A DNA stretch of 64,000 nucleotides from contig JAFGFB010000292.1 of the NCBI GenBank assembly GCA_016931315.1, forward strand, positions 14,699-78,698, in the 5' to 3' direction. The notes beneath the pieces are model-generated. The model ran no database searches. It saw nothing but the letters and a program-made list of their open reading frames with translations, and was not told where the DNA came from. Both the position numbers and the translations under genes were made by a program. This document shows positions 10,729 to 33,426 of this stretch, one piece after another (within the stretch, counting starts at the first letter, position 1; every line of letters begins with the position of its first letter). The stretch comes from Anaerolineae bacterium (GTDB lineage Bacteria; Chloroflexota; Anaerolineae; B4-G1; SLSP01).

Positions 10729-10758
10729 AGGCCATTCTCCTTCATCAAAGTCCCGGAT

Positions 10759-10819
10759 GGGCGGGCGGACACGCAGGCGGACACGCAGGCGGACACGCAG
10801 GCGGACACGCAGGTCCGCC
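10759..10819. repeat. expanded REP-like element: GGGCGG + (gcggacacgcag) x4 + GTCCGCC
   Basis: gggcgggcggacacgcaggcggacacgcaggcggacacgcaggcggacacgcaggtccgcc. This is the left arm plus loop of the GGGCGGAC-acgcag-GTCCGCCC hairpin, repeated four times with a 12-nt period. Confidence 0.9.
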
Positions 10820-10820
10820 A

Positions 10821-15700: not shown

Positions 15701-18700
15701 TTACTCCTCCACTTCCAATTCGACTGCGGCGCGCCGCACACCCAACGCCAAACTCAACTCGCGTAGCGCCCGTTCAAGCAGGGATTCCACCTCAACCTCA
15801 GCGCGGACTCGACCACTAATCGTGCTCGCCAGCTGTTCGCGCGTGGCACGAGCACGCGTATCCTCCAGCAAGCGCGCGGTTTCCAGAGCCTGTCCTAAAC
15901 GCGAGCCGGCTTCTTCGAGTAATGTAAGGGCATCGGGCGCCAGCTCGCCGCCACGCGAGCGCACGTTGAGCACGCCGATGACCTGCTCACGGACTCGAAT
16001 AGGGACAGCCACAGTGGTGACGCCCTCAGCAGGGCTATTTTCGGCATCGGGTGGCGGACCACCGGGTGACGGCTGTAGGGTCACGGAACGACCTTCCCGC
16101 AACGCCTGTTGGGATTCAGCGCTGAGTACAGCGGTGCCGAGTACAGCGGTGACGGCGTTGGGGGCGCTGGCGTTGGGCACAACATTTACGGGTTCAGTTG
16201 CCACTTCGGGTTCAAAACCGCGATATCTATAGCCACGCGCGCGCTGGGTCTTCGCCAGGAATTCACGCCACGACTCCAGGGTGTATGTGCCCATCACGGC
16301 TTCCAACTGGTGCACGTTGCGATCCGCTTCTTGCAAGAGACGGGAGATTTCCAACGCGTTCGCCAACTGGTCTGCCACCGTCTGCAACATCGCCACGTCA
16401 TCTGCGCTGAAGGCATCCGCCGAGGCCGATTGAATGCACAGCGCCCCCAGGGTCTGCGACCCGCGCAGCAAGGGCAAAGCGACCTCGGTTACACCTCCAG
16501 CTTCATCCTGCGGGACGAGAAGCGATATGCTCACAGATTCAGTCAGCTGTGGCTCGCGGCGCATCACACACAGCGCCGCCGAACTTTCCCCCGGCAGCGC
16601 AAGGCGCACATCACCTGCCAGGTGCTCCGCCGCGCGCGCGCCGCCGGCAGCGCGCAACACCAACCAAAGAGGGGCAACCTCTTGTGGGCGGACACTCAGA
16701 TCCGCCCCAACAGAGGGCTCGGTCTGCAAGAAGATTGCCACACCGGGATAACCCAAACGCTCTTGTATTTCCGTTACGGTCTGCGGTAGGAGCTCCGCGG
16801 CATCCAAAAGCGCTGACAGGGTGCGCGAAATGAGCGCTGCCTGCTGGAGTTTTGCCGCGCGCTGTTGCGCCGTATCCTGGATGGATTTTAGTTCAGTCAC
16901 ATCGCTGGATATGCCGACCAGGCCAATGATCTGCCCCTTGGCGTCACGCATAGGGATTTTCGTCGCCGAGAACCAGCGTGACTGACCCTCACGATTGACG
17001 ATATGTTCCAGACGGCCGATGATGGATTGTCCATCGCGAATCACGCGCAGGTCATCTTCCCAAGCGCTTTCGGCACTAGGTCCCACAAAGAAATCCAGGT
17101 CGGTCTTGCCCACGGCTTTCTCTGGGTCGGGTACGCCCAACATCGCAGCCTGAGCGGGATTGACGCGAGTGAAACGCAATTCCATGTCCTTGAAATAGAC
17201 GGTGTCCGGGATGTTGTTGATGAGGGCGCTCTGCTCGACATCCTTACGCGAGATGGCTTCCAGGCGCACCCGGTTTTCCAGCGCGACAGCAGCCTGTCCC
17301 GCCAGGTTCATCAGAATCCGCGCTTCAACCCCCGAGAAAACATGCGGTTGCCGGTAGGCGGCAACCAGCAGACCGATCCACTCGCCGCCGGCGACTAAGG
17401 GAACCAGCGCCAGGGCAGAAGCCTTGAAACGCTCGCTGAAGAAACGGCGGGCGCTGGCTTCCAGCCGATCGTCACGCTTTAAGTCCGGAATTAACGCCGG
17501 AACGTCCGGACGCACTAATTGAGCTGCACTAAACAGCGCCAGGAGGTAATGGGCGTCGAAGGCTTCCGGGTTGAGTACAACCTCCGCAATGTCGTTGGTC
17601 CATCGCGCCAGAGGGGCGAGCGCCGCCGGTGGAGCATCAGGTGTCCAGGGATGATCAAAGCGTTCAACGCTGGCAAAAATATCCGTCTCACCCAAGACCG
17701 TGTATTGCCGTAGGGCTTCGAGGATTGCGGCGTAGTCAGGGCTAGCATTAAGCTCTGAAGCGGCACGATAGAGCAGGTTGACTTCCCTGGCGTCGCGCTG
17801 ACTCTCGGCAAAGAGGCGCGCATTTTCCAGGGCCGTTGCCAGCTGGTCGGCGATCGTCGTCATCAAGATCACGTCGTTCTCGGAAAAAGCGCCACGCGCA
17901 GAGGATTGCACCGTCAACGCGCCGATTGCCTGGTCGCCACGAAGCAGGGGCACTGCCATTTCGGAGTGCGTTTCGGGCAACAGGGGGTTATCGAAGCGTA
18001 CGGCTTCAACGCCGACATCGAGCGCAATGCGCGCCTGCGCATCCCGAATACAGGCGCCAATCATGGAGGCGCCGCCGATCTCCAACCGGTGCCCGGCAGC
18101 TAACATGCGCTGCCCGGCTTCACCCGTACCGGCACGCAGCAGCGCCAGGCGACGGTCCGCGTCGGCAAGGAAAACGCCAACGTAGTAATAGTCGAAGCGG
18201 TCGCGAATGAGTATCACAGAACGCTCAAGGAGTTCCTGCAAATCGAGGATAGAAGAAGTCGCACGCGCGACTTCTGCCGCGGTTTGTAGTTGTACTGCAC
18301 GCTGCTCGACCTCCGCCAGAAGACGATTGGATTCGAGCGCATTGGCTACCTGCAAGGCGATAGTGGAGAGCAAGTCCTGATCAGAAGGGGTAAATAGATT
18401 CTCGGTGTCGTAGCTTTCGATTGCCATAACGCCGACAACCTTGCCTGCGGTCATCAACGGGACGCCCAACCAGGAGAGTGCCTCATCACCGACCAACCCT
18501 AAACCCTGCGACTCCATAAAAGCCCGGTTCTCCTCAAGGTTCGCCAGATGCAATGGACGACGATTGCGAATGATGTACCCGGTTAGCCCTTGCCCCAGCT
18601 TGTGAACGCGTGGGGCTTGTAACTCTCCGTGTGCCACCTGGAAAGCCAGAGTCCACTCGTCACGACCTTCCTGGTAGGTGGCGATGTAGAAATCTTGGGT

Positions 18701-19843
18701 GTCAAACACACGGCTGATCTGCTCATAAGCGCTCTTCAAAATTGTGTCGAGGTCGTGCGCGTCGGCAAAAGCCTGTTGCAGGTCACTGAGCACTGAGAGT
18801 TCTCGAAGGCGTCTTTGAGACTGCTCAGTAAGATAGAAGCTCTCAATGGCCGTTGCAAGCTGGTCAGCTAACATCTGCAACACAGTGACATCCTCATCCG
18901 AAAAAGCGGCGATTTTTTCTGATTGAACCGTCATCGCCCCCAACACCGCGGCATCTTGTCGTTGATGTTGGCGCCCAAGGAGGGGGAACGTCAATTTGCC
19001 AGTATCAGTTGGGCGGACACGTAGGTCCGCCCCAACACGCAGATCCGCCCCTACAACGGGGTATCTTTCCGACAGCTGCGCCACCTCGCCAGCTCCGGCA
19101 CGTAGGACAGCCCACTGCCCGGTGGGGGCCAACAGATACACACCGACGTAGTAAAGAGCCAAACGTTCCTGCACCATCGTCGCTACCTGCGATAACAACG
19201 AATCCAGGTCGGGTTCAGTCGGCATGAATGCCGCGGCAATGATGCGCGCGCCTTCTGCAGCGACCGCCAGGAGTTCAGCCTTGTGATGCACGCCAGCCAA
19301 TAAGCAGGCATTTTGGATAGCCGCCGCAGCCTGGCCGGCTAACATCTCGATCAGCACGATGTCTTCAGCCGTGAAATCAGGTTGCGCCATCGTGTTATGT
19401 ACGCTCAAAAGGCCCAATACTTGCTCGCCATGCAATAGCGGCACCACAACACACGAACCAATGTTCTTTTCCACACGGCGCCGGCGCACTGCGGGGGATT
19501 CGCGTGGGTCGCCAATAACCATAGCTTTCGCGGAAAAGGCAGTCTGGCGTTCATGCATAGCCCAGCCCGGTAAACCTTCTTTCAACGCAGCAAAATCAAG
19601 GGGATCACCGGGTGACGCATCACCATCTGCCCCAGCCCTGGCAATATGAGTTATTTGGGCCGCTTCAATATCCAACACATAGAGCACCACACTGTGGGCT
19701 TGTAACGCCTCAGCAGCGCCGGTCACAATCGCCTCAAACACACCGGGTGACGCGTCACCTTGTAAATCTTGCTGATCAATGACAGAGCGTGTCACACGAT
19801 AGAGCGTGCTAACGTATACTGGGTTAGTTAGTTCTTCACTCAT
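15701..19843 (-). CDS. S13: soluble multi-GAF + PAS protein with no recognisable output domain
   Basis: Preferred start is ATG 19843 (MSEELTNPVY), which overlaps the S12 stop by 8 nt (ATGAGTGA). The track start 19903 translates a REP element out of frame. Several GAFs, including FDYYYVGVFLADADRRLALLRAGTGEAGQRMLAAGHRLEIGGASMIG. PAS (VYFKDMELRFTRVNPAQAAMLG...GLVGISSDVTELK). AW/GY module (ESWREFLAKTQRARGYRYRG...VAVPIRVREQVIGVLNVRS). Stub REQLASTISGRVRAEVEVESLLERALRELSLALGVRRAAVEL. Confidence 0.88.
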   Translation of the reverse strand: MSEELTNPVYVSTLYRVTRSVIDQQDLQGDASPGVFEAIVTGAAEALQAHSVVLYVLDIEAAQITHIARAGADGDASPGDPLDFAALKEGLPGWAMHERQTAFSAKAMVIGDPRESPAVRRRRVEKNIGSCVVVPLLHGEQVLGLLSVHNTMAQPDFTAEDIVLIEMLAGQAAAAIQNACLLAGVHHKAELLAVAAEGARIIAAAFMPTEPDLDSLLSQVATMVQERLALYYVGVYLLAPTGQWAVLRAGAGEVAQLSERYPVVGADLRVGADLRVRPTDTGKLTFPLLGRQHQRQDAAVLGAMTVQSEKIAAFSDEDVTVLQMLADQLATAIESFYLTEQSQRRLRELSVLSDLQQAFADAHDLDTILKSAYEQISRVFDTQDFYIATYQEGRDEWTLAFQVAHGELQAPRVHKLGQGLTGYIIRNRRPLHLANLEENRAFMESQGLGLVGDEALSWLGVPLMTAGKVVGVMAIESYDTENLFTPSDQDLLSTIALQVANALESNRLLAEVEQRAVQLQTAAEVARATSSILDLQELLERSVILIRDRFDYYYVGVFLADADRRLALLRAGTGEAGQRMLAAGHRLEIGGASMIGACIRDAQARIALDVGVEAVRFDNPLLPETHSEMAVPLLRGDQAIGALTVQSSARGAFSENDVILMTTIADQLATALENARLFAESQRDAREVNLLYRAASELNASPDYAAILEALRQYTVLGETDIFASVERFDHPWTPDAPPAALAPLARWTNDIAEVVLNPEAFDAHYLLALFSAAQLVRPDVPALIPDLKRDDRLEASARRFFSERFKASALALVPLVAGGEWIGLLVAAYRQPHVFSGVEARILMNLAGQAAVALENRVRLEAISRKDVEQSALINNIPDTVYFKDMELRFTRVNPAQAAMLGVPDPEKAVGKTDLDFFVGPSAESAWEDDLRVIRDGQSIIGRLEHIVNREGQSRWFSATKIPMRDAKGQIIGLVGISSDVTELKSIQDTAQQRAAKLQQAALISRTLSALLDAAELLPQTVTEIQERLGYPGVAIFLQTEPSVGADLSVRPQEVAPLWLVLRAAGGARAAEHLAGDVRLALPGESSAALCVMRREPQLTESVSISLLVPQDEAGGVTEVALPLLRGSQTLGALCIQSASADAFSADDVAMLQTVADQLANALEISRLLQEADRNVHQLEAVMGTYTLESWREFLAKTQRARGYRYRGFEPEVATEPVNVVPNASAPNAVTAVLGTAVLSAESQQALREGRSVTLQPSPGGPPPDAENSPAEGVTTVAVPIRVREQVIGVLNVRSRGGELAPDALTLLEEAGSRLGQALETARLLEDTRARATREQLASTISGRVRAEVEVESLLERALRELSLALGVRRAAVELEVEE
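16124..16153. repeat. 15-nt tandem repeat (2 units) in an S13 linker
   Basis: gagtacagcggtgcc followed by gagtacagcggtgac. It encodes TAVLGTAVLSA on the minus strand. Confidence 0.85.
16685..16709. repeat. REP-like hairpin element, in frame inside S13
   Basis: tgggcggacactcagatccgcccca. Arms GGGCGGA and TCCGCCC pair. It encodes VGADLSVRPQ on the minus strand. Confidence 0.85.
19009..19054. repeat. REP-like hairpin element with a duplicated half, in frame inside S13
   Basis: ttgggcggacacgtaggtccgccccaacacgcagatccgcccctac. It encodes VVGADLRVGADLRVRPT on the minus strand. Confidence 0.85.
19606..19624. repeat. palindromic GDASPG element (slightly degenerate copy)
   Basis: caccgggtgacgcatcacc. 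It encodes DGDASPGD within the first GAF of S13. Confidence 0.8.
19741..19759. repeat. palindromic GDASPG element
   Basis: caccgggtgacgcgtcacc contains the perfect 14-nt palindrome GGTGACGCGTCACC. It encodes QGDASPGV near the S13 N-terminus. Confidence 0.85.
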
Positions 19844-21368
19844 AGCTCTCACCTTGAGGGGCCTCAGTTGGGCGGACACGCAGGTCCGCCCCCACCGAAC
19901 CAACGGCGGAATCTGCGGGCGCGGATGGTTCCAGGAAGACCATTACTTCATCAAGGTCGAGTAGGCGTCCAAGGTCCACAACCGCTTGTTGTAACAACGC
20001 ATCCACATCAAATGAACGCCCAAAGCGTACGGATAGATCGCCCAATACTTGCTGGCGCTGCGCCTGGCGTTGGGTTTCCTCAACCAGACGCAGGGTTTCC
20101 AGCGTCTGTCCCAACTGATCCATGACCGACTCAAGCAACGCCAACTCTTCAGCCGTCCAGGGATTGCCATCGGAGCGACGAGCACTGATGGCTCCGACGA
20201 CCTCATCACGCACTGCAATGGGAAGGGCCAATTCTCCGGATGCCACCACGGTGCTGCGTTGTCCCAAACGGTGCAACTTCGCCGCCTCCGCCATCAGCGG
20301 AGACCAGGGCGTTGGCGTTGAGTCCGTGGGGTCCAACGCAAGTTGAATCGTGGACACTTCTCCACCGCTGGCGCGAAAACCACGACGCCCCTGCCCGCCC
20401 TCCAAAAACATCGTCCAGGCTTCCTGAAGGTAGCGTTGCTGCACCACCCGCAATTCAGTCAAAGTCGTCACCAAGGTCTCAACCGTCCGGTTCAACCGGG
20501 CGCCCAGAGCAAGCAGCGCCGGACTGACCACACGATTCGCCATCGCTTCCATATCAAGGCGGGCGTCAAAATCGCCCTCCTCCACACGTCCCAGAAAGGC
20601 GGTGTACTCCTGCACACTCTGTTGCAGCTGCTCGACGGTGCTTAACACTTGCTGCCGGGCATCGCTTTCAGCCCGGGCGGCCAACTCTGCACTCTGCAAT
20701 GCTTCAGCCAATTCCTCGCCGCGTTGGTGTGCTGCCAACAAACCTGCTTCCGTCAACCCCACGAAAACCGCCAGCAGTGCTACCGTGACGCCCAAACAAA
20801 TGAGCAACATTCCCATGGTCAACAACCGCCCCACAACAGGGGTCAGAGGGTAAGGAACCAACAAACCAGAACTCTGCAGCGCAACCCACACACCGGCAAG
20901 ACCTAACACTCCCAGAGCCGAACCCAAAGCGGCGCCACGACCACTGATCAATGCGGCAATGATGATCAAAGGCCCAAAAGCCAGGCTCATGGGTCCGGTA
21001 GGCCCACCCAAGAAATAGGAGAGGGTAAGAATAATCAAACCAGTGGTGACCAGATAAATGCGCGAAGCCCACTCCACGGCCCCCCGGGCACGCGCCCACC
21101 GGACCAGAATCACCAACGCTACGTAAACCCCCAGGAGCGGCAATACCGTCAACAGCGGGAAATCCAAAGCCAGTTGCGATGCCAGGAAGGAAAACAAGAT
21201 CAACACAACCACCGCGACGAAGGTGAAACGCGTAACCATCAAAAGCGACTGTGACTTACGGGCAGCAGTCTGCTCCAGAATGGTATGGGCGCTTGCGGCG
21301 CTGGGACCAGGCCTGGTGGAACCAGGGCTTACGGCGTTGTGATCAACGGGATCAACATTGGTGCTCAT
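19836..21368 (-). CDS. S12: minimal family member (polytopic membrane block + HAMP-like linker + AW/GY module + stub, no canonical GAF)
   Basis: Preferred start is ATG 21368, overlapping the S11 stop (TGATG), with GGAGGAGG upstream. The track uses TTG 21371. About 6 TM helices. Linker FLGRVEEGDFDARLDMEAM...LGARLNRTVETL. Module YLQEAWTMFLEGGQGRRGFRASGG...LALPIAVRDEVVGAISARRSDGNPWTAEE. Stub RQQVLGDLSVRFGRSFDVDALLQQAVVDLGRLLDLDEVMVFL. Confidence 0.85.
   Translation of the reverse strand: MSTNVDPVDHNAVSPGSTRPGPSAASAHTILEQTAARKSQSLLMVTRFTFVAVVVLILFSFLASQLALDFPLLTVLPLLGVYVALVILVRWARARGAVEWASRIYLVTTGLIILTLSYFLGGPTGPMSLAFGPLIIIAALISGRGAALGSALGVLGLAGVWVALQSSGLLVPYPLTPVVGRLLTMGMLLICLGVTVALLAVFVGLTEAGLLAAHQRGEELAEALQSAELAARAESDARQQVLSTVEQLQQSVQEYTAFLGRVEEGDFDARLDMEAMANRVVSPALLALGARLNRTVETLVTTLTELRVVQQRYLQEAWTMFLEGGQGRRGFRASGGEVSTIQLALDPTDSTPTPWSPLMAEAAKLHRLGQRSTVVASGELALPIAVRDEVVGAISARRSDGNPWTAEELALLESVMDQLGQTLETLRLVEETQRQAQRQQVLGDLSVRFGRSFDVDALLQQAVVDLGRLLDLDEVMVFLEPSAPADSAVGSVGADLRVRPTEAPQGESYE
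19868..19895. repeat. REP-like hairpin element, in frame in the S12 C-terminal tail
   Basis: gttgggcggacacgcaggtccgccccca. It has an 8-bp stem (GGGCGGAC/GTCCGCCC) and a 6-nt loop. It encodes VGADLRVRPT on the minus strand. Confidence 0.9.
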
Positions 21369-23689
21369 CAAACCTCCTCCCCCACCGACGGCGGCGCCGG
21401 AAACGGCGCTTGGACCAACGGGCCCAACTGCGCCACCAACTCAGCCGCACCGAGTACACGGCTCATATCGCTTAGCGCACGCTGCAGTGCCTGCTCAACA
21501 GATGCAGAGGCACGAATGTTATCTACGATTTGGCCCACCAGGCGCTCGCGTTCACTGCGGCGGAGGGTATCCTCAAAGAGCCGCGCGTTATCCAACGCCA
21601 ACGCTGCCTGCTCGGTGAGCGTTTGCACCAGTTCCAACTCCTCTTGAGTCCAGGGACGCTCAGGAGAACGTTCCAGTTCCAGCGTGGCCAAGACCTGATC
21701 GCGCAGGGTGATATTGGCCGCAACAGCGTTGGGTAGAACGGTGTTGGGGGCGCTAACGGCGCTTACGGGTATAGGCGAGACGGTTTGCCCCTCAAAGCGG
21801 TAAGCCGACAAGCCGCGGCGTTTGCGTTCCGCCCACGCTGTTCGCGTTTCCTGGCCAAAGGCACGCTCCATGCGAGACAGCGCCGCCTCACTTTCCTCCA
21901 GGAGGCGAACATTGTCCAGCGCCAGCGCCAGTTGCTCAGCCATGGTCTGCAATACGGTGACGTCCTCTTCAGAAAAAGCCTCAGGCTCAGTGGATTGCAC
22001 ATCCAAAACACCGATAACCTGCCCCCGCGCACGCAGAGGCAACCCCAGCTCCGATCTTGTATTGGGCAAATCGGGGTTGTTGAACCACACTGCATCCGCT
22101 CCAACATCAAGGGCAATTCGCGGTCGCCCAGTGACCAAAACCGAACCCACAATGCCCACGCCCGCATCCAGACGGTGCCCGCGCGCCAACATGCGCTGCC
22201 CGCCCTCGGAAGAGGCTGCGCGCAGTTGAGCGTAAGTTCCCGCAGCATTTGCCAGAAAAATGCCCGCATGATAGTAGCCAAAGCGATCGGAGATGAGGTT
22301 GACCATGGAATCCAGCAAGGCATCCTCGTCGTGAATCGAAGCGACATCCCGCGCCACTTCTGCCGCCAGCTGCAACTGCTGCGTGCGTTTGCTGAGATCA
22401 CGTGTGCGGGCATCAACCCGCTCCTCCAAAGAGGCGCGGGTCTCCAGCAATTCCGCATTGCTGACCCGCAACGCAGCCTCGATGCGACGACGGCGGGCAG
22501 CGCTGATGGACTGCGCGACAACCGTACCCACAAGGACAAGACCTACCGCTGACAGGGGCCAGATCACAGCCCCATATTGCTCGATGAAGGCAAGCGGACG
22601 GTTAATGATCTCACTATTCACGGGCAGCGTGGCCGTATCAATGTTGAATTTCTGCAACTGGTCATAGTCAAACATATAACGGTTGGGGCTTTCCCATTGA
22701 ATGGGAATATCGCCGGCGGCGCTGCCTTCCAGAATCCGCTGCGCTTTGAAGGCTGCGGCTTCGCCCTGAGAGAAGGCGTTGGTCAATTTGCCGCCGACCA
22801 TGCCACGCCCGAGGTAGAAATCCCACAAGCCGTAAATGGGCGCCTTGGTGTTGGCGTAGATCAGGTCAATAGCCTGCTCATAGGTGTAGAAACGTTGGGA
22901 GCGGTCGCGATTGAAGAGAATCAAGAGGACCAGGTTATCTTCAGTAAGGTTGCGCAAGGCGACCTCAAGGGCGCGCACATCGGTGTTCTCGTAGTAGACG
23001 AAGTTGACGCGATCCTCATAATCCTGAGCTACCTCGCGGAAGAGGCGGGAGTAGACCAAACCGGTGGTGGTGCCATCATTGACGACGAGAATCTCGCGAG
23101 TTTGGGGCCGCTGGGCGAGCGCGACATCCAGAGTGGCGCGAACATCCACGCTCTCTACCACGCCGGTGAACTGCGTGCGCTTACCCTCCAACATAACATC
23201 TTCAAAGAGATTGACACCGCAAAAGACCACGGGCACATCGGGGAAAAGCCGGTCGTGATATTCGAGCATGAAATTGAAGGCGTCATTATCGGCAACAATG
23301 ATGACATCGAATTTCACACCGTGATATTTCTGCTTATAGAGCTCGTAGAGGCGTTCATAATACGCAGCATCCGGCACAAGGCGCTTGGTATCCATATACT
23401 CCAGGTAGAGTTCAACTGCTGCGGCGCCACTGGGTGGCGCGGCCCCTTCGGAGGCAGCTGGATTGAGGACGGAGGTAATGCCACGGACAATATTATCACT
23501 CCAACTCAAACCCTGGTTGTAAGCATTGAGCACCAGGATATTCTTGGGCAGCTCATCCGTGGCTGTCTGGGCGGAGGCGCCGGAGGGCTGTGTGGACCAC
23601 ACAGAAGCCAACAGCAGCAAGCACAAAGCCAACGCTGGCCCTAGACGCAGCTTGCGCCTGTGCAAGAGCAAGTATTTTTTATCTACCAT
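21368..23689 (-). CDS. S11: periplasmic binding-fold (ABC_sub_bind-like) + TM + GAF sensor protein with no recognisable output domain
   Basis: ATG 23689 has TAGGAGAG upstream. Signal/TM LALCLLLLASVW. Periplasmic domain NILVLNAYNQGLSWSDNIVRGI...GGKLTNAFSQGEAAAFKAQRILEG, then a TM. GAF FGYYHAGIFLANAAGTYAQLRAASSEGGQRMLARGHRLDAG. Second module (TAWAERKRRGLSAYRFEG...NITLRDQVLATLELERSPERPWTQEE). Stub RERLVGQIVDNIRASASVEQALQRALSDMSRVLGAAELVAQL. Confidence 0.88.
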   Translation of the reverse strand: MVDKKYLLLHRRKLRLGPALALCLLLLASVWSTQPSGASAQTATDELPKNILVLNAYNQGLSWSDNIVRGITSVLNPAASEGAAPPSGAAAVELYLEYMDTKRLVPDAAYYERLYELYKQKYHGVKFDVIIVADNDAFNFMLEYHDRLFPDVPVVFCGVNLFEDVMLEGKRTQFTGVVESVDVRATLDVALAQRPQTREILVVNDGTTTGLVYSRLFREVAQDYEDRVNFVYYENTDVRALEVALRNLTEDNLVLLILFNRDRSQRFYTYEQAIDLIYANTKAPIYGLWDFYLGRGMVGGKLTNAFSQGEAAAFKAQRILEGSAAGDIPIQWESPNRYMFDYDQLQKFNIDTATLPVNSEIINRPLAFIEQYGAVIWPLSAVGLVLVGTVVAQSISAARRRRIEAALRVSNAELLETRASLEERVDARTRDLSKRTQQLQLAAEVARDVASIHDEDALLDSMVNLISDRFGYYHAGIFLANAAGTYAQLRAASSEGGQRMLARGHRLDAGVGIVGSVLVTGRPRIALDVGADAVWFNNPDLPNTRSELGLPLRARGQVIGVLDVQSTEPEAFSEEDVTVLQTMAEQLALALDNVRLLEESEAALSRMERAFGQETRTAWAERKRRGLSAYRFEGQTVSPIPVSAVSAPNTVLPNAVAANITLRDQVLATLELERSPERPWTQEELELVQTLTEQAALALDNARLFEDTLRRSERERLVGQIVDNIRASASVEQALQRALSDMSRVLGAAELVAQLGPLVQAPFPAPPSVGEEV

Positions 23690-23727
23690 GGACGCTCTCC
23701 TAAGAGTTGACTCAACTCACGCATCTC

Positions 23728-26046: not shown

Positions 26047-26070
26047 TCAATTCCTCCATCGGTGGTTGGA

Positions 26071-26099
26071 CCGCCGGTCATGCCGCCGGTCATGCCGCC
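26071..26099. repeat. 12-nt tandem repeat (2.4 units) spanning the S9 stop and the S9/S10 spacer
   Basis: ccgccggtcatg occurs twice, followed by ccgcc. It shares the ccgccggtc core with the S10 tail repeat at 23773-23813. Confidence 0.85.
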
Positions 26100-27844
26100 G
26101 CATCTTGCGCCGCATCCTCGCCACCCGACTGCAACTGCGCGCCCGGAACCAGGCGCACGATCAAATCCTCCAAGTCGAGAGCTTGACGCATTTGCTCTGC
26201 CGCCGTGCGCAGCATGGTCTCCAAATCCAGCGTCTCGCGAATACGCCCACTGACCTCACCCACAAGACGCTCGCGCGCGGCGCGGAGCTGCGTATCGCGA
26301 TACAACCGTCCACTCTCAAGCGCCACGCTCAACTGCTCTGCCAAAACCTGCAACAGCGCCAGTTCTGATTCCGTCCATGCCACGCCGGAAGGTTTGCGAC
26401 CATCCAGCACCCCAATCACCTGATCCCGCACTTTGAGAGGCACAGCAACCGCGCCCTGTTCCGCCTCCAAATGTACTGGCGCCCCAGTTTGCGCAGCAGC
26501 TTGCATGCGGGGTTCCCAAACATCAAAAGGATTGGTCCCCTTTGCATCACTTACATAGGATAGTTCCAGATTCTGACGCAAGAACAATTGCCAGGCTTCG
26601 CGCGATCTTTCAGCATAAAGACGGCGCTCAGCCTCCACACTTTCAGCCACCTGGCGCAGCAAATCGGCATTGGTGATCGCCACGGCTACTTGATCGGCGA
26701 TGGCTTGCAAAACGGTCACATCTTCCGCGGCGAAAGCCAGCGATTCCTGACTCTGCACATCCAAAACGCCAATCACTTTGTTACGCGCGCGTAGTGGTAG
26801 CGCAATCTCCGAACGCGTCTTCGGCAAGTCGGGATTGTTGAAAAAAACTGCATCCTGTCCGACATCCTGAGCAAGACGCACCTCGCCGCGAGCTGCCACC
26901 GTGCCCACGATGCCCTCTGCACCCACACGCAACCGGTGACCGCGTACCATCATGCGCTTGCCACCCTCGCTAGAGACGGCTTGTAACACAGCCCAGGTCT
27001 CCGTAGGATCTAGCAAAAACAATCCGGTATGATAAAAACCAAACTGCTCACTAATGACTGTCACAACTCGCGCCAGCAAGGATTGGGTGTCCTGCTGCAC
27101 GGTGGACATTGCCCCGCCGACAGCGCCGCCGGCCGCGGATGCAATCGCTGTGGTGGCGCCGAGATAGCTGGTACGGCGAGACAACTCGGCTGTGCGGGTC
27201 GCTATCGCAACTTCAAGCTCCTGACGACGCGCTTCTAATTCCTGGTTAGCATGACGTGTGCGCTCCAGAGATTCTTGCAGTCCACGCAATGCCTGAAGCA
27301 GAGGACCCCCGACAAGCACCAACCCCATCGTCAACACCACCCACGTAGAGATATTCGTAATCGGGAATACCGCCGGTGTGGATACTCCCTGCCCTCTAAG
27401 TATCGCCAGAAGCAGATAAAAGATGCTGCTTGCCGCCAACATGATTAGCGCAGGTCCACGTCCCAAAAGCAATCCCGCCAACACCACCAGGCTGACAGTG
27501 ACCGCTACAAAAGGATTTCCATCCACACTCACCACACCGGCTCCGGATGCCACGACCCACAATGCCACCAGCAGCAATGAACTGCCCTCGCGTACACGCC
27601 CACGCTGCAAAAGCAGTTTGGCGGCCAACGTCACCAGGAACAAGAAGCCCAATAGGATACCGGCGGCAAGTTTTGCCGTAAAGAAGAGCAATGCCGCAAC
27701 GACGCCAAAAATAACCGTGATGAAACTCCCCAACAGCAATGGGTTCAATAAGCCGGCAATACGGTTTTTCTCTTCATCCCCCGCAAAAATCGGCGCTCTC
27801 AAAAACGCTCTCAGCCGATCTATGAGCTTTCCTTCTTCCTTCAT
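26090..27844 (-). CDS. S9: polytopic-membrane GAF sensor protein with no recognisable output domain
   Basis: ATG 27844 overlaps the S8 stop (ATGA), with CAGGAGG upstream. About 6 TM helices. GAF FGFYHTGLFLLDPTETWAVLQAVSSEGGKRMMVRGHRLRVG...KTRSEIALPLRARNKVIGVLDVQS. Module EAWQLFLRQNLELSYVSD...VAVPLKVRDQVIGVLDGRKPSGVAWTESE. Stub RERLVGEVSGRIRETLDLETMLRTAAEQMRQALDLEDLIVRL. Confidence 0.88.
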   Translation of the reverse strand: MKEEGKLIDRLRAFLRAPIFAGDEEKNRIAGLLNPLLLGSFITVIFGVVAALLFFTAKLAAGILLGFLFLVTLAAKLLLQRGRVREGSSLLLVALWVVASGAGVVSVDGNPFVAVTVSLVVLAGLLLGRGPALIMLAASSIFYLLLAILRGQGVSTPAVFPITNISTWVVLTMGLVLVGGPLLQALRGLQESLERTRHANQELEARRQELEVAIATRTAELSRRTSYLGATTAIASAAGGAVGGAMSTVQQDTQSLLARVVTVISEQFGFYHTGLFLLDPTETWAVLQAVSSEGGKRMMVRGHRLRVGAEGIVGTVAARGEVRLAQDVGQDAVFFNNPDLPKTRSEIALPLRARNKVIGVLDVQSQESLAFAAEDVTVLQAIADQVAVAITNADLLRQVAESVEAERRLYAERSREAWQLFLRQNLELSYVSDAKGTNPFDVWEPRMQAAAQTGAPVHLEAEQGAVAVPLKVRDQVIGVLDGRKPSGVAWTESELALLQVLAEQLSVALESGRLYRDTQLRAARERLVGEVSGRIRETLDLETMLRTAAEQMRQALDLEDLIVRLVPGAQLQSGGEDAAQDAAA

Positions 27845-30279
27845 TCCGTCGCCTCCTGGTCCTCTGGAACACCCAGGCGCACAACCAAACGCTCCAATCC
27901 CAGGCGGGTGCGCAGCTCGTCAGCCGCTATGCGTACCATCCGTTCGATATCCAGTGTCTCGCGAATCCGTGATGTGACCTCGCCAACCAGGCGCTCCTGC
28001 TGCGCACGGTTCTGCGACTCCTGATACAAACGTGCGCTCTCCAAAGCCACACTCATCTGCTCAACCACCGAGGATATCAACGTCAGTTCCTCATCACTCC
28101 AACCCTCAGACTCCGGCGCTTGGGGGCGCTTGGGTTTCTGCAATCGAACCAGACCGATCACTTGCTCGCGAATCCGGAGCGGCAACACCACCGTAGTATG
28201 GTCCTCCTGATAGGATTCGGCTGCAAGCAAGCGGGTCGCAGCCGGACCTTGGGGCAATACCGGCGGCGCAATCAAAGGGCGAACACCCTCACTATCGCAC
28301 CGGTAACCGCGCTCGGCGCGCGCACGGAGCGTTGCCAACCATGCCTGCTGCGTCAGATCGCCATAAGCGCGGTGCTCCGCTTCCAACGCCTGTTGTGCGC
28401 TGGAAAAGAGCCGCGCGTTATCCAAAGCCACCGCCACCTGATCCGCCATGGTCTGCAACACCGCCATAGCGCTCTCATCAAAAGCCGCAGGCTGATCACT
28501 CTGGACGGATAACGCCCCCAACACCCGTCCACGCGAGCGCAAGGGCAGCGCTGCCTCTGAACGCGTATTCGGCAATTCAGAGGACGCCAACCGCACAGCA
28601 TCCTCCCCGACCTCCGAAGCAATACGCGGCTGTGCGTGCGCCACACTCCAGCCAATCATGCCCTCACCGACCCGAATACGGTGCTGTCGAGACAGCATTT
28701 TCCGCCCCGCTTCACCTGTGCCAGCGCGCAAAACTGCCCACTCGCGCTCCTCATCTGCCAGGAACAGCCCTACATAATACAAGCCAAAGCTGTCCCGAAT
28801 CAGCTCCACCACCTGGTCGAGCAACGCCTCCACATCCAAAATCTGCGTTACCGCACGCCCGACCTCTGCCGAACCCGCCAGATAAGCCGAGCGCCGGGTC
28901 AAATCCTGGGTGCGTTCAGCAACCTGCGATTCCAACGAGGCAACCAAAGCCCGCAAGCGCGCCGTCATTTGATTAAAGGCTCGTGCCAGTAAGCCCGCCT
29001 CGTCGCCACGGTCCACAGGCACTTCCAGGTTCAAGTTGCCACCCGCGATCTCCTGAGCGGCCAGCGCCAAACGGTTAATGGGAACGGCAATCGAACGCGA
29101 CAACAGAATGCTGAGGGCGATCATGGGCACCAGAATCAACGCGCTTACAATCCCCAGCGTGCGTAGCATATCCGCACGACCGCTTTGTAAGGCTTCCTGA
29201 TATGCCAGAATTTCGTTCTCGTAAGCGGTCACAACGATGACCCAATCCCAGGGTTCGTAGTAGGTAAGGCGACTAATGCGCGCTTGAGACTCAGTTTCAT
29301 CCGGGTTTTGCCAGCGATAGCGCAGGGTAGCCAGTCCTCTCGGCTCCAAATCCAGCGCCGCATCCACGATTTCGCGCGCCACGTAACGCTCGTCAACATT
29401 CGCCGTATTCCAAACACTGACGCCATCCAGTTGTGCGTCTTCGGAAATCAGGTAAACCCCCTGCTGATCTCCCTGAGCGCCCAGCACAAAGGTGTAGCCC
29501 GACTGCCCCACCTGGGTGTCCAAAATCGCCTGACGCAGAGATTCCACACCTTCACGCTTGATACCCACATAAAGCATCCCAATCACGTCGCCAACCATGT
29601 CGTAGATGGGTTCATAGGCGGTGAGGTACCAATCCGTAACCACGTAGGCGCTGCCCTGAAAAGTCTCGCCGCGCAATACGGTAGCCACCACAGGATTGGG
29701 AGTCCCATCGGGATTAATCGCTGGAATATAGGTTCCAATGGCGCGCCGCCCGTCTGCCGTCAAAACATTGGTAGCCACGCGCAACATATCCCCTTGCTCA
29801 TTCATGCGCTGGAAAATGGTGGCTGTGCCCCCTACCAGCTCCACGATTTCGTCCACTACGGGTGTGACCTCATCCGGGTTGGTATTCTCGCCCAACCACT
29901 GCCCGTCCACCAACATCTGAGGCAAACGCACGGGCACCGCTTGGAGTGTGAGCTGATTTGCGGCAGTCCAGGAAACCGTCCGCTCGGTGGAGAGCTCGGC
30001 CACACCGCTCTGCTCGAGAACATACCGTGCGGTCTTCAAATTATAATTCACCTGCTGCTGCACAGTCTCATCCTGTGCGCGAACCATGTTATAGATGCCT
30101 AGCGCAATATCGCCCAAATCGTTTAGCGCCAATACCTCAGCTTCTTGTGCGGCACGCTGGCTGAACAAATTACTCTGCCAGGAGGAGATGGCCCACAAAA
30201 CCAATGCGGTTATGAGCACCCCGTTCACGGTCAGGAACCCGATTTTGACAAGGATATTCAAGTTACGCCATCTGAACAT
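27841..30279 (-). CDS. S8: double-Cache + HAMP + GAF sensor protein with no recognisable output domain
   Basis: N-terminal TM, then a Cache-type periplasmic region (VGGTATIFQRMNEQGDMLRVATNVLTADGRRAIGTYIP...YLTAYEPIYDMVGDVIGMLYVGI), a TM and HAMP (LARAFNQMTARLRAL). GAF FGLYYVGLFLADEEREWAVLRAGTGEAGRKMLSRQHRIRVGEGMIGW. Module QQAWLATLRARAERGYRCD...VVLPLRIREQVIGLVRL. Stub ERLVGEVTSRIRETLDIERMVRIAADELRTRLGLERLVVRL. Confidence 0.9.
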   Translation of the reverse strand: MFRWRNLNILVKIGFLTVNGVLITALVLWAISSWQSNLFSQRAAQEAEVLALNDLGDIALGIYNMVRAQDETVQQQVNYNLKTARYVLEQSGVAELSTERTVSWTAANQLTLQAVPVRLPQMLVDGQWLGENTNPDEVTPVVDEIVELVGGTATIFQRMNEQGDMLRVATNVLTADGRRAIGTYIPAINPDGTPNPVVATVLRGETFQGSAYVVTDWYLTAYEPIYDMVGDVIGMLYVGIKREGVESLRQAILDTQVGQSGYTFVLGAQGDQQGVYLISEDAQLDGVSVWNTANVDERYVAREIVDAALDLEPRGLATLRYRWQNPDETESQARISRLTYYEPWDWVIVVTAYENEILAYQEALQSGRADMLRTLGIVSALILVPMIALSILLSRSIAVPINRLALAAQEIAGGNLNLEVPVDRGDEAGLLARAFNQMTARLRALVASLESQVAERTQDLTRRSAYLAGSAEVGRAVTQILDVEALLDQVVELIRDSFGLYYVGLFLADEEREWAVLRAGTGEAGRKMLSRQHRIRVGEGMIGWSVAHAQPRIASEVGEDAVRLASSELPNTRSEAALPLRSRGRVLGALSVQSDQPAAFDESAMAVLQTMADQVAVALDNARLFSSAQQALEAEHRAYGDLTQQAWLATLRARAERGYRCDSEGVRPLIAPPVLPQGPAATRLLAAESYQEDHTTVVLPLRIREQVIGLVRLQKPKRPQAPESEGWSDEELTLISSVVEQMSVALESARLYQESQNRAQQERLVGEVTSRIRETLDIERMVRIAADELRTRLGLERLVVRLGVPEDQEATE

Positions 30280-30293
30280 GGATCATCTCCTTC

Positions 30294-30317
30294 GGCAATC
30301 TTGTCGGCAAGATTGCC
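30294..30317 (-). other. intercistronic hairpin directly upstream of the S8 ribosome-binding site
   Basis: ggcaatctt gtcggc aagattgcc has a 9-bp perfect stem and a 6-nt loop. On the minus strand GAAGGAGATGATCC-ATG of S8 follows immediately. There is no U-run. Confidence 0.5.
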
Positions 30318-30335
30318 GCATTGCGCTCTGTGTAA

Positions 30336-32237
30336 CTATTGGCGTCCATCAGAAGCCCCATCAAACAAGTCGGGTCCCATGTAAATTTCAGCCGCATCCA
30401 ACACCAACAACCGGCGCAATTCCTGAACCGCAGTGCGCAACACCCCATCTACATCCAGCGTGCTGCGGATTCGTGAGGTCACATCCGCCAACAACCGTTC
30501 AGTAGCAGCGCGCCGCTGCGTGTCTTCATAGAGTCGCGCGCTCTCGAGCGTCACACCCAAGCGATCCACCAACACATTCACCATCGCCAACTCTTGAGCC
30601 GTCCAGGCGCCGCCTTTGGCGGCGGCGGCGCTGGGTACAGCGCCTGGCCCTTCGCCCTCGCTTTCTGGCTTGCTGAGACGTAGCACACCAATGACTGCAT
30701 CGCGCGATTTAATCGGAACGGCCAAATCGTGGTCGTCCACCTGGACCATCTCACCTGTGTTCACAGCACGCAGCAACTCCGGTTGCCAATCCGCTTCCAG
30801 TGCCATAACTCCGCCATCGCTTGCCCCAGCGAAGCCCTTTCCCCGGGAGAGCTTCTCCCAAGCCGCACGGGTCATCTCGCCAGAAGCGCTACGCAGGGCT
30901 TCCAATGTAGATTGGCTCTCGGCATACAGGCGAGCGTTATCAATCGCCACAGCCAGCTGGTCCGCCATCACCTGCAACACGGCCACAGCCGCTTCATCAA
31001 ACGCATTGACTTCATCATCCTGAACCGTGAGCGCCCCGATAACGCGACCACGAGAGCGCAAGGGGACAGCCGCCTCAGACCGTGTCTCGGGCAATTCCGC
31101 CGTAACCCTGCGGACCTCATCAGAAGCAGCTTGTGCCGCAATACGCGCTTGCACATTCGCAATAGACCAGCCAATCATGCCCTCACCAACACGAATTCGG
31201 TGCCCGCGTGCCGACATGATTCGCCCCGCCTCACCAGTACCCGCGCGCAACACAGCCCATTCACCACTCTCATCCACAAGGAACAGGCCCACATAATACA
31301 GCCGGAACCGGTCACGGATGATTTCCACCGACTGCTCGATCAACCGATCAGCATTCAGAATTGCAGTAGCCGCACGGCTGACATCCGCCGCCGCCAGCAA
31401 GTAGGCTGACCGGCGCTCTAGGTCACGCGTACGTTGCTCCACACGCTCTTCCAGTTCTCCATAAGAAGTTGCCAGATCTCCCGCCATGCGATTAAAGGTC
31501 TGAGCTAACAGACTCAATTCATCCGAACCGGCCACTGGAATGACTGTCTGCAAGTTACCCCGAGCAAAAGCCTCTGCGCCTACACGCAACTCCATCACAG
31601 GCCGCGAAATGCTTCGCTCTACCAGCAACGCCAACAACACCGAGATGACCAGCGCGCCAGCCATAACGCCAATGATCAAAAACAGCCGTCGTTGCGACTG
31701 CTCAGTCAGTGCAGCATTAGCCGCAGCCACCCGCTGCTGGCTCTGAACAACAACGCGCTCAATTTGCACGCCAATATCATTGCCCAGACGCTGCGATTGC
31801 AATTCTAGCGCTGCCACACGCGTCGCATCCCCCGAGGCGCGAATAATCTGAATATCGTCAATCAAGGTTGCGTATTGATTCAGATTCTCGATCAGCTGAC
31901 GTACCCGCTGTTGTTGCGCCGGGTCATCGAGCAGCACTTGCGCCTGCGTCAGATAATCCAAGGCGCGCACCACATCATCGGCAGCTTCATAAGGGCTAGG
32001 CACTGTATCGCGCAAATAACGCAGCAAATTCGCGCGCGAGGCTGCTACACGCACCGCTGCACTTAACAACAAACGCTCAGCCTGCGCATCAACATCCACC
32101 ACTTGTTGCAACTGCGCATTCAAGCTATTGTGGTCGAAGATAAAAACCGGCAGCGATGCCGCAGTCAGCAGGATCAATAACAGAAACCCGCCAAAGATCC
32201 GTTGGCGTACCGACAAGCGGCGCAAAAAATCGGTCAT
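30336..32237 (-). CDS. S7: four-helix-bundle-like periplasmic domain + HAMP + GAF sensor protein with no recognisable output domain
   Basis: TM (FGGFLLLILLTAASLPVFIF), a helical periplasmic region of ~150 aa, a TM, then HAMP (LAQTFNRMAGDLATS). GAF FRLYYVGLFLVDESGEWAVLRAGTGEAGRIMSARGHRIRVGEGMIGW. Module RAAWEKLSRGKGFAG...LAVPIKSRDAVIGVLRLSKPE. Stub TERLLADVTSRIRSTLDVDGVLRTAVQELRRLLVLDAAEIYM. Confidence 0.88.
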   Translation of the reverse strand: MTDFLRRLSVRQRIFGGFLLLILLTAASLPVFIFDHNSLNAQLQQVVDVDAQAERLLLSAAVRVAASRANLLRYLRDTVPSPYEAADDVVRALDYLTQAQVLLDDPAQQQRVRQLIENLNQYATLIDDIQIIRASGDATRVAALELQSQRLGNDIGVQIERVVVQSQQRVAAANAALTEQSQRRLFLIIGVMAGALVISVLLALLVERSISRPVMELRVGAEAFARGNLQTVIPVAGSDELSLLAQTFNRMAGDLATSYGELEERVEQRTRDLERRSAYLLAAADVSRAATAILNADRLIEQSVEIIRDRFRLYYVGLFLVDESGEWAVLRAGTGEAGRIMSARGHRIRVGEGMIGWSIANVQARIAAQAASDEVRRVTAELPETRSEAAVPLRSRGRVIGALTVQDDEVNAFDEAAVAVLQVMADQLAVAIDNARLYAESQSTLEALRSASGEMTRAAWEKLSRGKGFAGASDGGVMALEADWQPELLRAVNTGEMVQVDDHDLAVPIKSRDAVIGVLRLSKPESEGEGPGAVPSAAAAKGGAWTAQELAMVNVLVDRLGVTLESARLYEDTQRRAATERLLADVTSRIRSTLDVDGVLRTAVQELRRLLVLDAAEIYMGPDLFDGASDGRQ

Positions 32238-32250
32238 GGTCGTACCCCCA

Positions 32251-32297
32251 GTTGGGCGGACACCAGGTCCGCCGGGCGGACACCAGGTCTGCCCCTA
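32251..32297. repeat. two tandem REP-like hairpin elements in the S7-upstream spacer
   Basis: gttgggcggacaccaggtccgcc gggcggacaccaggtctgcccctac. This is the only fully intergenic copy of the family in the window. It lies between the SBP stop (32298) and the S7 start (32237). Confidence 0.85.
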
Positions 32298-33314
32298 CTA
32301 GTCAGATGTTGCCGACTCCCAAATCGTGTTGGTATAGACTTCTTCGGGTTGGACAGGGCTTGCCAGCACGCCATAGCGCTGCAGCGTATCCACTACACGC
32401 AAGACATCAGCCCGATCCGTATATCCAATGGGACGAATATCGGAGCTCTTCACCAACAACGCAATCTCACGCATCATTGACAGTTGGTGCTCAAGAGTCT
32501 GCGTCCCGGTGACATCATATTTGAGCACGATATCGGCGGCTTCCTCAGGATTTGCCACCGCATATTCCCAACCCCGCAACGAAGCCCGCAGCATGCGCTC
32601 GCAGAGATCGGGATTCTGTTCCACCAAAGCCTTAGTCGTGAACAGCGTATCGCCGGGGAAATCCAGACCGTAATCCGCATAGTCAATGATGCTCAGCTCG
32701 TTGGCCGCCACACCGCTTTCCAGGACCACATGGTACTCGTTGTAAATCATCGCCGAAGCGACATCGAGATCCCCCGCGAGGAAAGCCTCCATACTAAAGC
32801 CCTGTGAAACCAGCTGATATTGATTATCAGCAATGGATTGTTGGGTCATAAGGGCGCGAAATTGCGCATCCCAACTCCCCAACCACACGCCCACACGCTT
32901 GCCCAGAAAATCGGTAGGGTCGTCAATTCCGGAGCTCTGAAATGCCAGCAACAATAAGCCATTCTGCTGTTGTATCTGCGCAATGCTGATAAGAGGTTGT
33001 CCCTCCTGCACGGCGGATGCCAAATCGGCAAGCATGTAGGTGCCGAAGTCCGCATTACCTCCGGCAACGGCGGTTGCGGGGGAAATGTCGGGACCCCCGG
33101 CGCGGATCGTGACATCCAGCCCCTCTTCGGCATACCAGCCCTTTTCCAAAGCTACATAGTAACCAGCGAACTGCGCTTGTGGGAACCACTGCAGTTGCAG
33201 GATGACCGACTGTGTCTCATCGGGCGTTTCTACAGGCTTGGCTGGAGTACACGCCGCCAACATTCCCACCGTTAACGCCAACAGCAAAACTCCGAAAGAT
33301 ATCTTGTGTCTCAT
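32298..33314 (-). CDS. NMT1/THI5-like (SsuA/TauA-type) periplasmic solute-binding lipoprotein
   Basis: Preferred start is ATG 33314, with GGAGGAG upstream. Lipobox LTVGMLAAC. Family-typical LQLQWFPQAQFAGYYVALEKGWYAEEGLDVTIRAGGP. No ABC permease or ATPase gene anywhere in the window. Confidence 0.85.
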   Translation of the reverse strand: MRHKISFGVLLLALTVGMLAACTPAKPVETPDETQSVILQLQWFPQAQFAGYYVALEKGWYAEEGLDVTIRAGGPDISPATAVAGGNADFGTYMLADLASAVQEGQPLISIAQIQQQNGLLLLAFQSSGIDDPTDFLGKRVGVWLGSWDAQFRALMTQQSIADNQYQLVSQGFSMEAFLAGDLDVASAMIYNEYHVVLESGVAANELSIIDYADYGLDFPGDTLFTTKALVEQNPDLCERMLRASLRGWEYAVANPEEAADIVLKYDVTGTQTLEHQLSMMREIALLVKSSDIRPIGYTDRADVLRVVDTLQRYGVLASPVQPEEVYTNTIWESATSD

Positions 33315-33426
33315 TTCCACTCCTCCACCCACACTATAGGTAATTGTCATTCCAACGTTAACTACTTCACAGAGCTTTCAAACTCGCCACTACCGTCCGG
33401 CAAACCGGCTTCAAGACCACTATTCG

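Follow-up and report, generated by a model that had tools for sequence, protein, structure and literature searches.

GTAG-type palindromes, probably cognate to RayT transposases, within and between genes of an Anaerolineae genome

In a 64,000-nt stretch of the metagenome-assembled genome of an uncultured Anaerolineae bacterium (C57:14699-78698, hereafter the window), a small GC-rich hairpin recurs at five loci, and three of the copies lie inside open reading frames (ORFs). Which element enters coding DNA in this manner, by what route did it arrive, and what has it done to the genes that it met? The hairpins are very probably GTAG-type repetitive extragenic palindromes (REPs), present as singles, partial arrays and inverted dimers (REPINs), and cognate to a RayT/TnpA_REP transposase that is, judged by its features, a putative member of TnpA_Y1 subclass 2.4 (Quentin, Siguier, Chandler and Fichant 2018, PMC6006769). 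The genome assembly (G000) comprises 4.35 Mb in 330 contigs with 56.5% GC and is 89% complete, and it was compared with five sister genomes of the same genus (G001-G005).

A motif scan of the window recovered the five hairpin loci, all in one orientation, that a sequence-only reading of this DNA had described. The exact pattern GGGCGGAC-N4-7-GTCCGCCC matched twice, at 19011-19032 and 19870-19891, and allowing up to three mismatches added 10799-10820 and 16686-16707, giving four matches where shuffling (100 shuffles) led to an expectation of 0.00. The remaining locus, 32254-32298, holds two hairpin copies with a 5-nt loop. The motif had been written in its + strand form. The region's genes are encoded by the - strand, where an element consists of GTAG (or GTTG/GTGG), then GGGCGGAC-loop-GTCCGCCC, with an 8-bp stem and a loop of 5-6 nt. 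The GTAG head is exact at three of the five loci and degenerate (GTTG, GTGG) at two, and the extents of the loci given below were redrawn to take in a conserved CCCCTAC tail.

Two adjacent genes carry the three intragenic copies. S13 (15701..19843, - strand) encodes a 1381-aa multi-GAF and PAS sensor protein, with seven GAF stretches and one PAS domain in Pfam, which contains two REP-derived segments. At 19011..19054 (- strand), a full REP with a half copy upstream on the coding strand is read in frame as VVGADLRVGADLRVRPTD (residues 263-280), and at 16686..16711 (- strand) a single REP with two mismatches and a degenerate GTTG head is read in frame as SVGADLSVRPQE (residues 1044-1055). S12 (19836..21368, - strand), encoding a 511-aa membrane/GAF protein, bears one perfect single REP in its tail (19870..19895, - strand; GTGG head), which, 27 nt upstream of the ATG of S13, is read as VGADLRVRP from residue 492. 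The three copies share one phase and the peptide VGADL[RS]VRP, as had been noticed from the sequence alone. Both other loci are intergenic, where only one had been counted as such. The array at 10759..10824 (- strand) consists of about four 12-nt partial units (GGACACGCAGGC) and one full hairpin at the end, and its GTAG head (10821-10824, - strand) is the source of the TAG stop codon of an ORF in the S-gene train (10821..11966, - strand). The tandem pair at 32254..32298 (- strand) directly follows the TAG stop of another ORF (32298..33350, - strand), with the G of this TAG completing the GTAG of the REP head and an ATG 16 nt further on at 32237. REP heads that provide TAG stops were noted by Di Nocera et al. 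(PMC3733652).

The family extends far beyond the window. The strict motif has only four matches in the whole of G000, and the refutation that this count suggested was overturned once the two middle stem positions were freed, which yielded about 19 loci on at least nine contigs and in unrelated contexts, their consensus being GGGC-NN-ACAC-RY-AGGT-NN-GCCCCTAC. On the opposite strand this consensus is a GTAG head followed by an 8-bp GC stem. The free stem positions are complementary to each other (GG/CC, GC/GC, AG/CT, GA/TC), the stem foot GGGC...GCCC with its three consecutive G-C pairs is present in all copies, and the CCCCTAC tail recurs within one mismatch in 15 genome hits. Many loci are composed of tandem partial units (12, 13, 16, 18, 21 or 25 nt) and one complete terminal hairpin. 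About one third of the loci (6 of ~19) are intragenic, and the rest are intergenic or stand at contig ends, contigs C308 and C317 themselves ending in REP arrays. Since a GTAG foot and a GC palindrome are the published definition of GTAG-type REPs (PMC3733652), the elements can be identified as such.

Among 40 relatives scanned with up to one mismatch, the REP occurs in quantity only in G000, G004 and G005, that is, in three of the six genomes of the genus; it is absent from G001-G003 and nearly absent from the 35 further relatives. With one genome per species, an exact-pattern scan yielded the REP on at least 120 contigs, whose sources include Firmicutes, Bacteroidota, Cyanobacteria, Desulfobacterota, Acidobacteriota, Nitrospirota, Campylobacterota, Chloroflexota and other phyla. 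In the 120 contigs scanned, the free stem positions are perfectly complementary in 158 of 168 copies (94%), with eight different dinucleotides; the hairpin itself is thus under selection.

What the copies replaced, or were added to, can be read from the sister genomes, in all five of which a DNA search located the region orthologous to S12-S13. G001-G004 encode intact S13 orthologs 1357-1375 aa in length, and the G005 region is broken by N runs. These N runs (L036, G005:C222:35900-42300) fall exactly at the REP and variable segments of S13, and the assembly is unreliable there. G004, with flanks that are 80-84% identical, lacks four of the five window loci at the corresponding sites. The S13 site 19011-19054 corresponds to the second GAF domain (GAF2), about 50 residues of whose core have been replaced; this core, HHRLEVGG...SEMALPL, is intact in G001, G002, G003 and G005. 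G000 and G004 instead share about 25 REP-derived residues at the site, in the form of one and a half tandem copies in G000 and of an inverted dimer (GTAG...CTAC) in G004, and the S13 of G004 has an extra 12-residue REP insert downstream of its dimer. At 16686-16711 the REP has taken the place of a hypervariable acidic beta-hairpin loop, between two strands of a C-terminal GAF domain, and adds nothing to its length; the loop of the orthologs is acidic, unrelated to the REP and about as long or shorter. Both S13 copies thus lie inside GAF domains and the S12 copy in a variable C-terminal tail, rather than in the inter-domain linkers proposed earlier.

The three gene junctions of the window that carry copies were altered in different ways. 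In the S12 tail, the ancestral TGA is still present but out of frame, and S12 is 11 codons longer and overlaps the start of S13. The pair at 32254-32298 is a clean insertion right behind the TAG stop, G004 having the empty site GACTAG-CTGA-TGAGGTAACGACC-ATG. The array at 10759-10824 stands in place of the native TAA and spacer, for which G004 has CAATAA and an unrelated 45-nt spacer. By ortholog comparison, the window copies are to be read as insertions or replacements, and the comparison shows that their arrival in this lineage postdates or roughly coincides with its divergence from the sister species, with recent arrival or rearrangement at the sites. The S13 of G000 also contains a 22-residue insertion, EPVNVVPNASAPNAVTAVLGTAVL (~16127-16192), which is not REP-like and is absent from all five orthologs, and further small G000-specific insertions near the N-terminus and at DIAEVVLNPEAF.

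These alignments bear on two other explanations. The occurrence of the same peptide three times in two adjacent paralogs could mean that the S proteins have kept GADLRVRP from their ancestor for its function and that the palindrome is incidental. The peptide is missing, however, at all three sites in G001-G003 and G005 and at two sites in G004, and conservation is found at the nucleotide level, with compensatory changes in the stem, so that this idea is refuted by the ortholog alignments and retains next to no credibility. The intragenic copies could also stem from faulty assembly or binning of the metagenome, for instance from chimeric joins induced by repeats, a reading to which the arrays at the ends of C308 and C317 and the N runs of G005 at REP sites lend some colour. 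Such an origin is very improbable in view of flanks that are collinear with the orthologs on both sides of every site, of ORFs that stay open, and of an independent assembly, G004, with a REP dimer at the same S13 site.

Would the host rather have selected these hairpins as structural elements of the 50-kb S-gene operon, as mRNA 3'-end protectors, processing sites or modulators of translational coupling kept for the differential expression of paralogs? All five copies share the orientation of the mRNA, and their RNA folds on the mRNA strand are strong, as had been anticipated (-23 to -40 kcal/mol, z-scores -1.5 to -4.5). Three of the five stand at gene junctions, yet the other two are deep within S13, and four are missing at the orthologous sites of G004, where the same operon is present. 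The stabilisation of upstream mRNA by E. coli REPs is established knowledge (mentioned in PMC3733652). The REP of the window is also found in AnmK, LysA and murF-murD, all of them unrelated genes, and in further phyla. No T-run follows the hairpin on the mRNA strand at any of the five window copies, which also rules out rho-independent terminators. A role as operon elements is therefore considered unlikely as the reason for their presence.

The REP reading is tied to a transposase by the sister genomes. G004 has a 308-codon RayT frame (G004:C204, L048, 1851-2774) with the hallmarks HHRRSIRLEGYDY, HUH MPNHFHGII and WQRNYYEHIIRD, in which MPNHFHGI is the HUH motif and WQRNYYEH contains the catalytic Tyr. 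A fourfold tandem REP array begins 5 nt beyond its stop codon, and a further REP array of about 360 nt (about 130 residues) is embedded in frame between the HUH and Tyr motifs. After removal of the latter array, the protein matches the NCBIfam model NF047646, "REP-associated tyrosine transposase" (7e-16, 58 bits, below the curated cut-off of 80 bits), and Pfam Y1_Tnp scores RayT at 20-27 bits. A search of PDB sequences with the array-bearing RayT returned low-complexity matches only (circumsporozoite protein) and was discarded as meaningless. In G005 (G005:C92, L180), the N-terminal half of RayT persists together with REPs, and the C-terminal half has been lost between REP arrays. With an interrupted gene in G004, a truncated one in G005 and none found in G000, RayT appears to be decaying in the genus. 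Another repeat of about 80-170 nt, unrelated to the REP, lies beside the G004 RayT gene (L048 2842-3008) and recurs at more than 50 places in G000, many of them contig ends, with 75-86% identity.

The in-frame copy is a recurrent property of this transposase. Five of the 120 scanned contigs contain a RayT homolog, and all five (L058, L080, L104, L125, L136) have a REP inside the RayT ORF at the same place; an in-frame REP in RayT was also seen in G062, G086, G089, G131 and G181. Among the best 120 of at least 8000 RayT homologs, VGADLxVxP occurs in 110 and GxHxGxPL in 96, between the HUH motif and the IVQWFK helix. The two peptides are the two arms of an in-frame inverted REP dimer, and their residues vary in pairs that suit the stem: (A,A), (T,V), (E,S), (G,P) and (K,L). 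The homologs range from 179 to 320 aa, a variation caused by tandem arrays, and more distant RayT paralogs have other GTAG...CTAC palindromes at the same site. In an AlphaFold2 (AF2) model of a RayT homolog (confidence, pLDDT, 82), the REP segment is predicted as an unstructured, low-pLDDT loop from the HUH strand to the next helix. The top Foldseek matches of this model are the TnpA proteins of ISDra2 and IS608 and the E. coli TnpA_REP structure 4ER8 (E 3e-7 to 1e-6, target TM-score 0.53-0.71); E. coli TnpA_REP lacks about 20 residues at the position of the REP segment.

In a class-wide sample of 151 genomes, 72 have RayT and 17 the exact REP, 13 of the 17 having both, and several genomes carry REP copies solely within the RayT gene. 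The link of the REP to RayT in the sister genomes is demonstrated, as are the consequences of its copies for host ORFs. The suggestion of a small mobile palindromic element made from the window alone is borne out by some 19 loci, by carriage in half of the genus genomes, by the empty sites of G004 at four of five loci and by RayT in the sister genomes. The class sample also includes an Anaerolineae genome (G146) with at least 64 exact REPs, mostly in a fixed 57-nt inverted dimer with two different stems and a 5-nt spacer (e.g. C55:795-851); this dimer is a proliferating REPIN. A separate set of perfect palindromes of about 34 bp, GTATTTTGGGGACGCGC-TTC-GCGCGTCCCCAAAATAC, is found at 16 loci of G000 (e.g. 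C83:8476, C177:8477, C330:8425), flanked on both sides by A/T runs in the manner of bidirectional terminators or of a MITE's hairpin core.

How the copies may have spread is suggested by their orientation. At 16 of the 19 loci, the strand on which GTAG comes first is the G-rich strand, and this holds on C221 despite host genes on the other strand. The G-rich strand is taken as the lagging-strand template, so the orientation appears to follow the replication strand and not a filter on frames, a bias in keeping with transposition of single strands at the fork, the mode known for IS200/IS605. On the paradigm of IS200/IS605 and TnpA_REP, the HUH enzyme would recognise, on the lagging-strand template in its single-stranded state, the folded hairpin with its GTAG foot and would cut and rejoin the strand there, copying the REP to new sites, after which replication slippage at the hairpin could build the partial-unit arrays. 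The landing sites are gene ends, where the GTAG head is able to become a TAG stop, and the variable loops and tails of genes. In relatives, source copies sit in frame within RayT, in the disordered loop that leads from the HUH strand to the helix after it. Several of the events in G000 were replacements, in which the GAF core was lost or a stop codon and ribosome-binding site were replaced; we infer that the copies are nearly neutral. Because RayT is decaying in the genus and was not found in the assembly, most G000 copies are probably immobile remnants, whose effects, if any, would be incidental ones on mRNA structure.

The host flanks at 16676-16716 and 10750-10830 are themselves self-complementary (CCTCT...AGAGG and CCCGGA...TCCGGG), which recalls the remark of Di Nocera that GTAG-23 REPs sit inside small target palindromes (PMC3733652). 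An extra palindrome as a general property of the flanks was dropped, being seen at these two loci and not at others.

Several observations weigh against an origin by RayT-mediated transposition. RayT was detected in G000 neither by the Pfam Y1_Tnp search nor by tblastn with the G004 protein, which does not establish its absence, since the assembly has a completeness of 89% and also lacks the RecJ-like neighbour that RayT has in G004. The G004 protein stays under the NF047646 cut-off, no REP was found 5' of its gene up to the contig end, and two genomes of the class sample, G146 with its 64 REPs and G106, gave no RayT hit at E<=1e-10. The counts behind the strand bias are not independent, nine of the 19 loci being on two contigs, and gene orientation is a confounder. 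Most events, moreover, are replacements and not clean insertions, and recombination or gene conversion could have contributed.

The last point, in its strongest form, would dispense with the transposase: slippage, hairpin-stimulated deletion and gene conversion among the paralogous S genes would have spread the sequence locally, and the copies would be recombination scars. Partial-unit tandem arrays are indeed common, host sequence was lost at several sites, no RayT was found in the G000 assembly, and the five window copies fall within 22 kb of one paralog train. Local processes do not, however, lead to copies on at least nine contigs in unrelated contexts or to the clean insertion beside TAG at 32254, and slippage cannot create a 26-nt sequence that is common to REPs of many phyla and to RayT genes. 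Purely local spread is accordingly judged quite unlikely, and GTAG-type REPs cognate to RayT remain the preferred explanation.

The copies outside the window extend the record of altered host genes. In AnmK (C221:21792-21917), a variable loop harbours an in-frame REP array of 126 nt with the reading GADTQVC, and the G004 protein has seven residues at this site that look like a decayed single copy. In LysA (C221:16223-16237), a degenerate REP in a loop reads GAHVGAP, and compared with G001-G003 this loop has 6-8 additional residues in G000, G004 and G005. The AnmK and LysA loops of G004 and G005 thus look like decayed REP relics, and ordinary loop residues may derive from old REPs. The C-terminal part of AnmK in G004 and G005 (L001/L002) shows, apart from this, an insertion of tandem GLPSAA-like hexapeptide repeats, a further repeat expansion in frame in this gene, none of which are present in G000-G003. 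At the murF-murD junction (C146:11122-11169), 14 nt including the stop codon and the Shine-Dalgarno sequence have been exchanged for 62 nt of REP, and G000 now has a single 980-codon ORF, MurF-VGADLGVRPLEADLGVRP-MurD. The junction consists of a TAG stop, 8 nt and ATG in G004 and G005, and the two genes are about 1-1.5 kb apart in G001-G003, G006 and G007.

Similar behaviour at gene junctions is known from mycobacterial interspersed repetitive units (MIRUs), tandem repeats of 40-100 bp at operon intercistronic junctions, which are in phase with the flanking genes and overlap stops and starts. The S12/S13 and murF/murD junctions behave in a comparable way, although MIRUs are not GTAG hairpins and have no known transposase.

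Is the shared phase in the window a sign of a single tolerated frame, as had been supposed? Across the genome three frames are in use: one yields VGADLRVRP (four copies), another GADTQVC (AnmK) and the third GAHVGAP (LysA). The TAG of the GTAG head always closes one frame, the only one of the six for which this holds, and a second closes when the loop is ACRTAG; copies survive in coding DNA since five frames out of six (four with the ACRTAG loop) are free of stops. A more speculative proposal, regarded as less likely than not, is that the REP is adapted to translation: selection on the transposase, whose gene houses the long-lived source copies in frame, would keep these frames stop-free and structurally harmless, and together with strand-specific insertion next to (G)TAG this would make it an unusually effective remodeller of coding DNA, the frame bias arising from replication orientation and pre-adaptation and not from filtering after insertion alone. 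Were this the case, a REP could replace stop codons, fuse or extend genes (the 980-aa MurF-REP-MurD; S12 over the S13 start) and donate stops; it could also overwrite domain cores (GAF2 of S13) and leave loops that decay to ordinary-looking sequence (AnmK and LysA in G004 and G005).

Much of this has precedents. The REPs and REPINs associated with RAYT proteins (Nunvar 2010, PMC2817692; Bertels & Rainey 2011, PMC3116915; Di Nocera 2013, PMC3733652) share with the G000 elements the 26-nt GC-rich palindrome with a GTAG foot, the occurrence as singles, inverted dimers and clusters, the compensatory stem variants, the TAG stops supplied by the head, the occasional in-frame copies in genes of known function and the patchy distribution among related genomes. 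G000 differs in having few copies (about 19 loci, where Pseudomonas or E. coli have hundreds), in that about one third of its loci are intragenic and in that no RayT was found in the assembly. Intragenic GTAG REPs, REP-supplied TAG stops and, for Chloroflexi, REP clusters have already been published (PMC3733652), and the G000 REP is probably none of the Chloroflexi families described there, because the GTAG-23 peptides listed for Roseiflexus are unlike those of G000.

There is a close likeness to the subclass 2.4 REPtrons. In the paper of Quentin et al. (PMC6006769), REPs are described in frame inside subclass 2.4 tnpA_REP genes, with long REPs whose stem foot has three G-C pairs, with "double-foot" GTAG...CTAC palindromes in related genes and with a distribution over many phyla. 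The properties given above for REPs inside RayT genes have all been published for this subclass. The G004 RayT, with a REP just downstream and an in-frame internal array, displays what that paper presents as a hallmark of the subclass, and the novelty of an in-frame REP dimer in RayT genes was accordingly rejected; the Anaerolineae genus, the decay of RayT and the consequences for host genes are not described in the parts consulted. The Rickettsia palindromic elements (Ogata et al. 2000, cited in PMC3733652) are likewise in-frame palindromes in functional-looking proteins, typically in surface loops. RPE-1 is nevertheless about 100-150 bp long, these elements belong to other sequence families and require no link to RayT (size and sequence per PMC3733652), and the G000 host is free-living with a 4-Mb genome.

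The case is therefore a documented phenomenon in a fresh Chloroflexota example and leaves the current picture of REPs and RAYTs unchanged; its added value lies in unusually clear before-and-after comparisons. Useful details are the fusion of murF and murD by a REP, the in-frame loss of a GAF core together with a REP, and REPs that seemingly outlive a decaying transposase. For annotation, 26-nt palindromes explain odd recurring peptides in predicted proteins of many phyla (VGADLRVRP, GRTHRSAPT-like, GAHxGAPL), and REP palindromes cause contig breaks in metagenome assemblies. For biology, the comparisons provide dated, ortholog-controlled effects of REPs on their host genes: stop codons donated or displaced, two essential cell-wall genes fused, and the core of a sensor domain deleted in frame.

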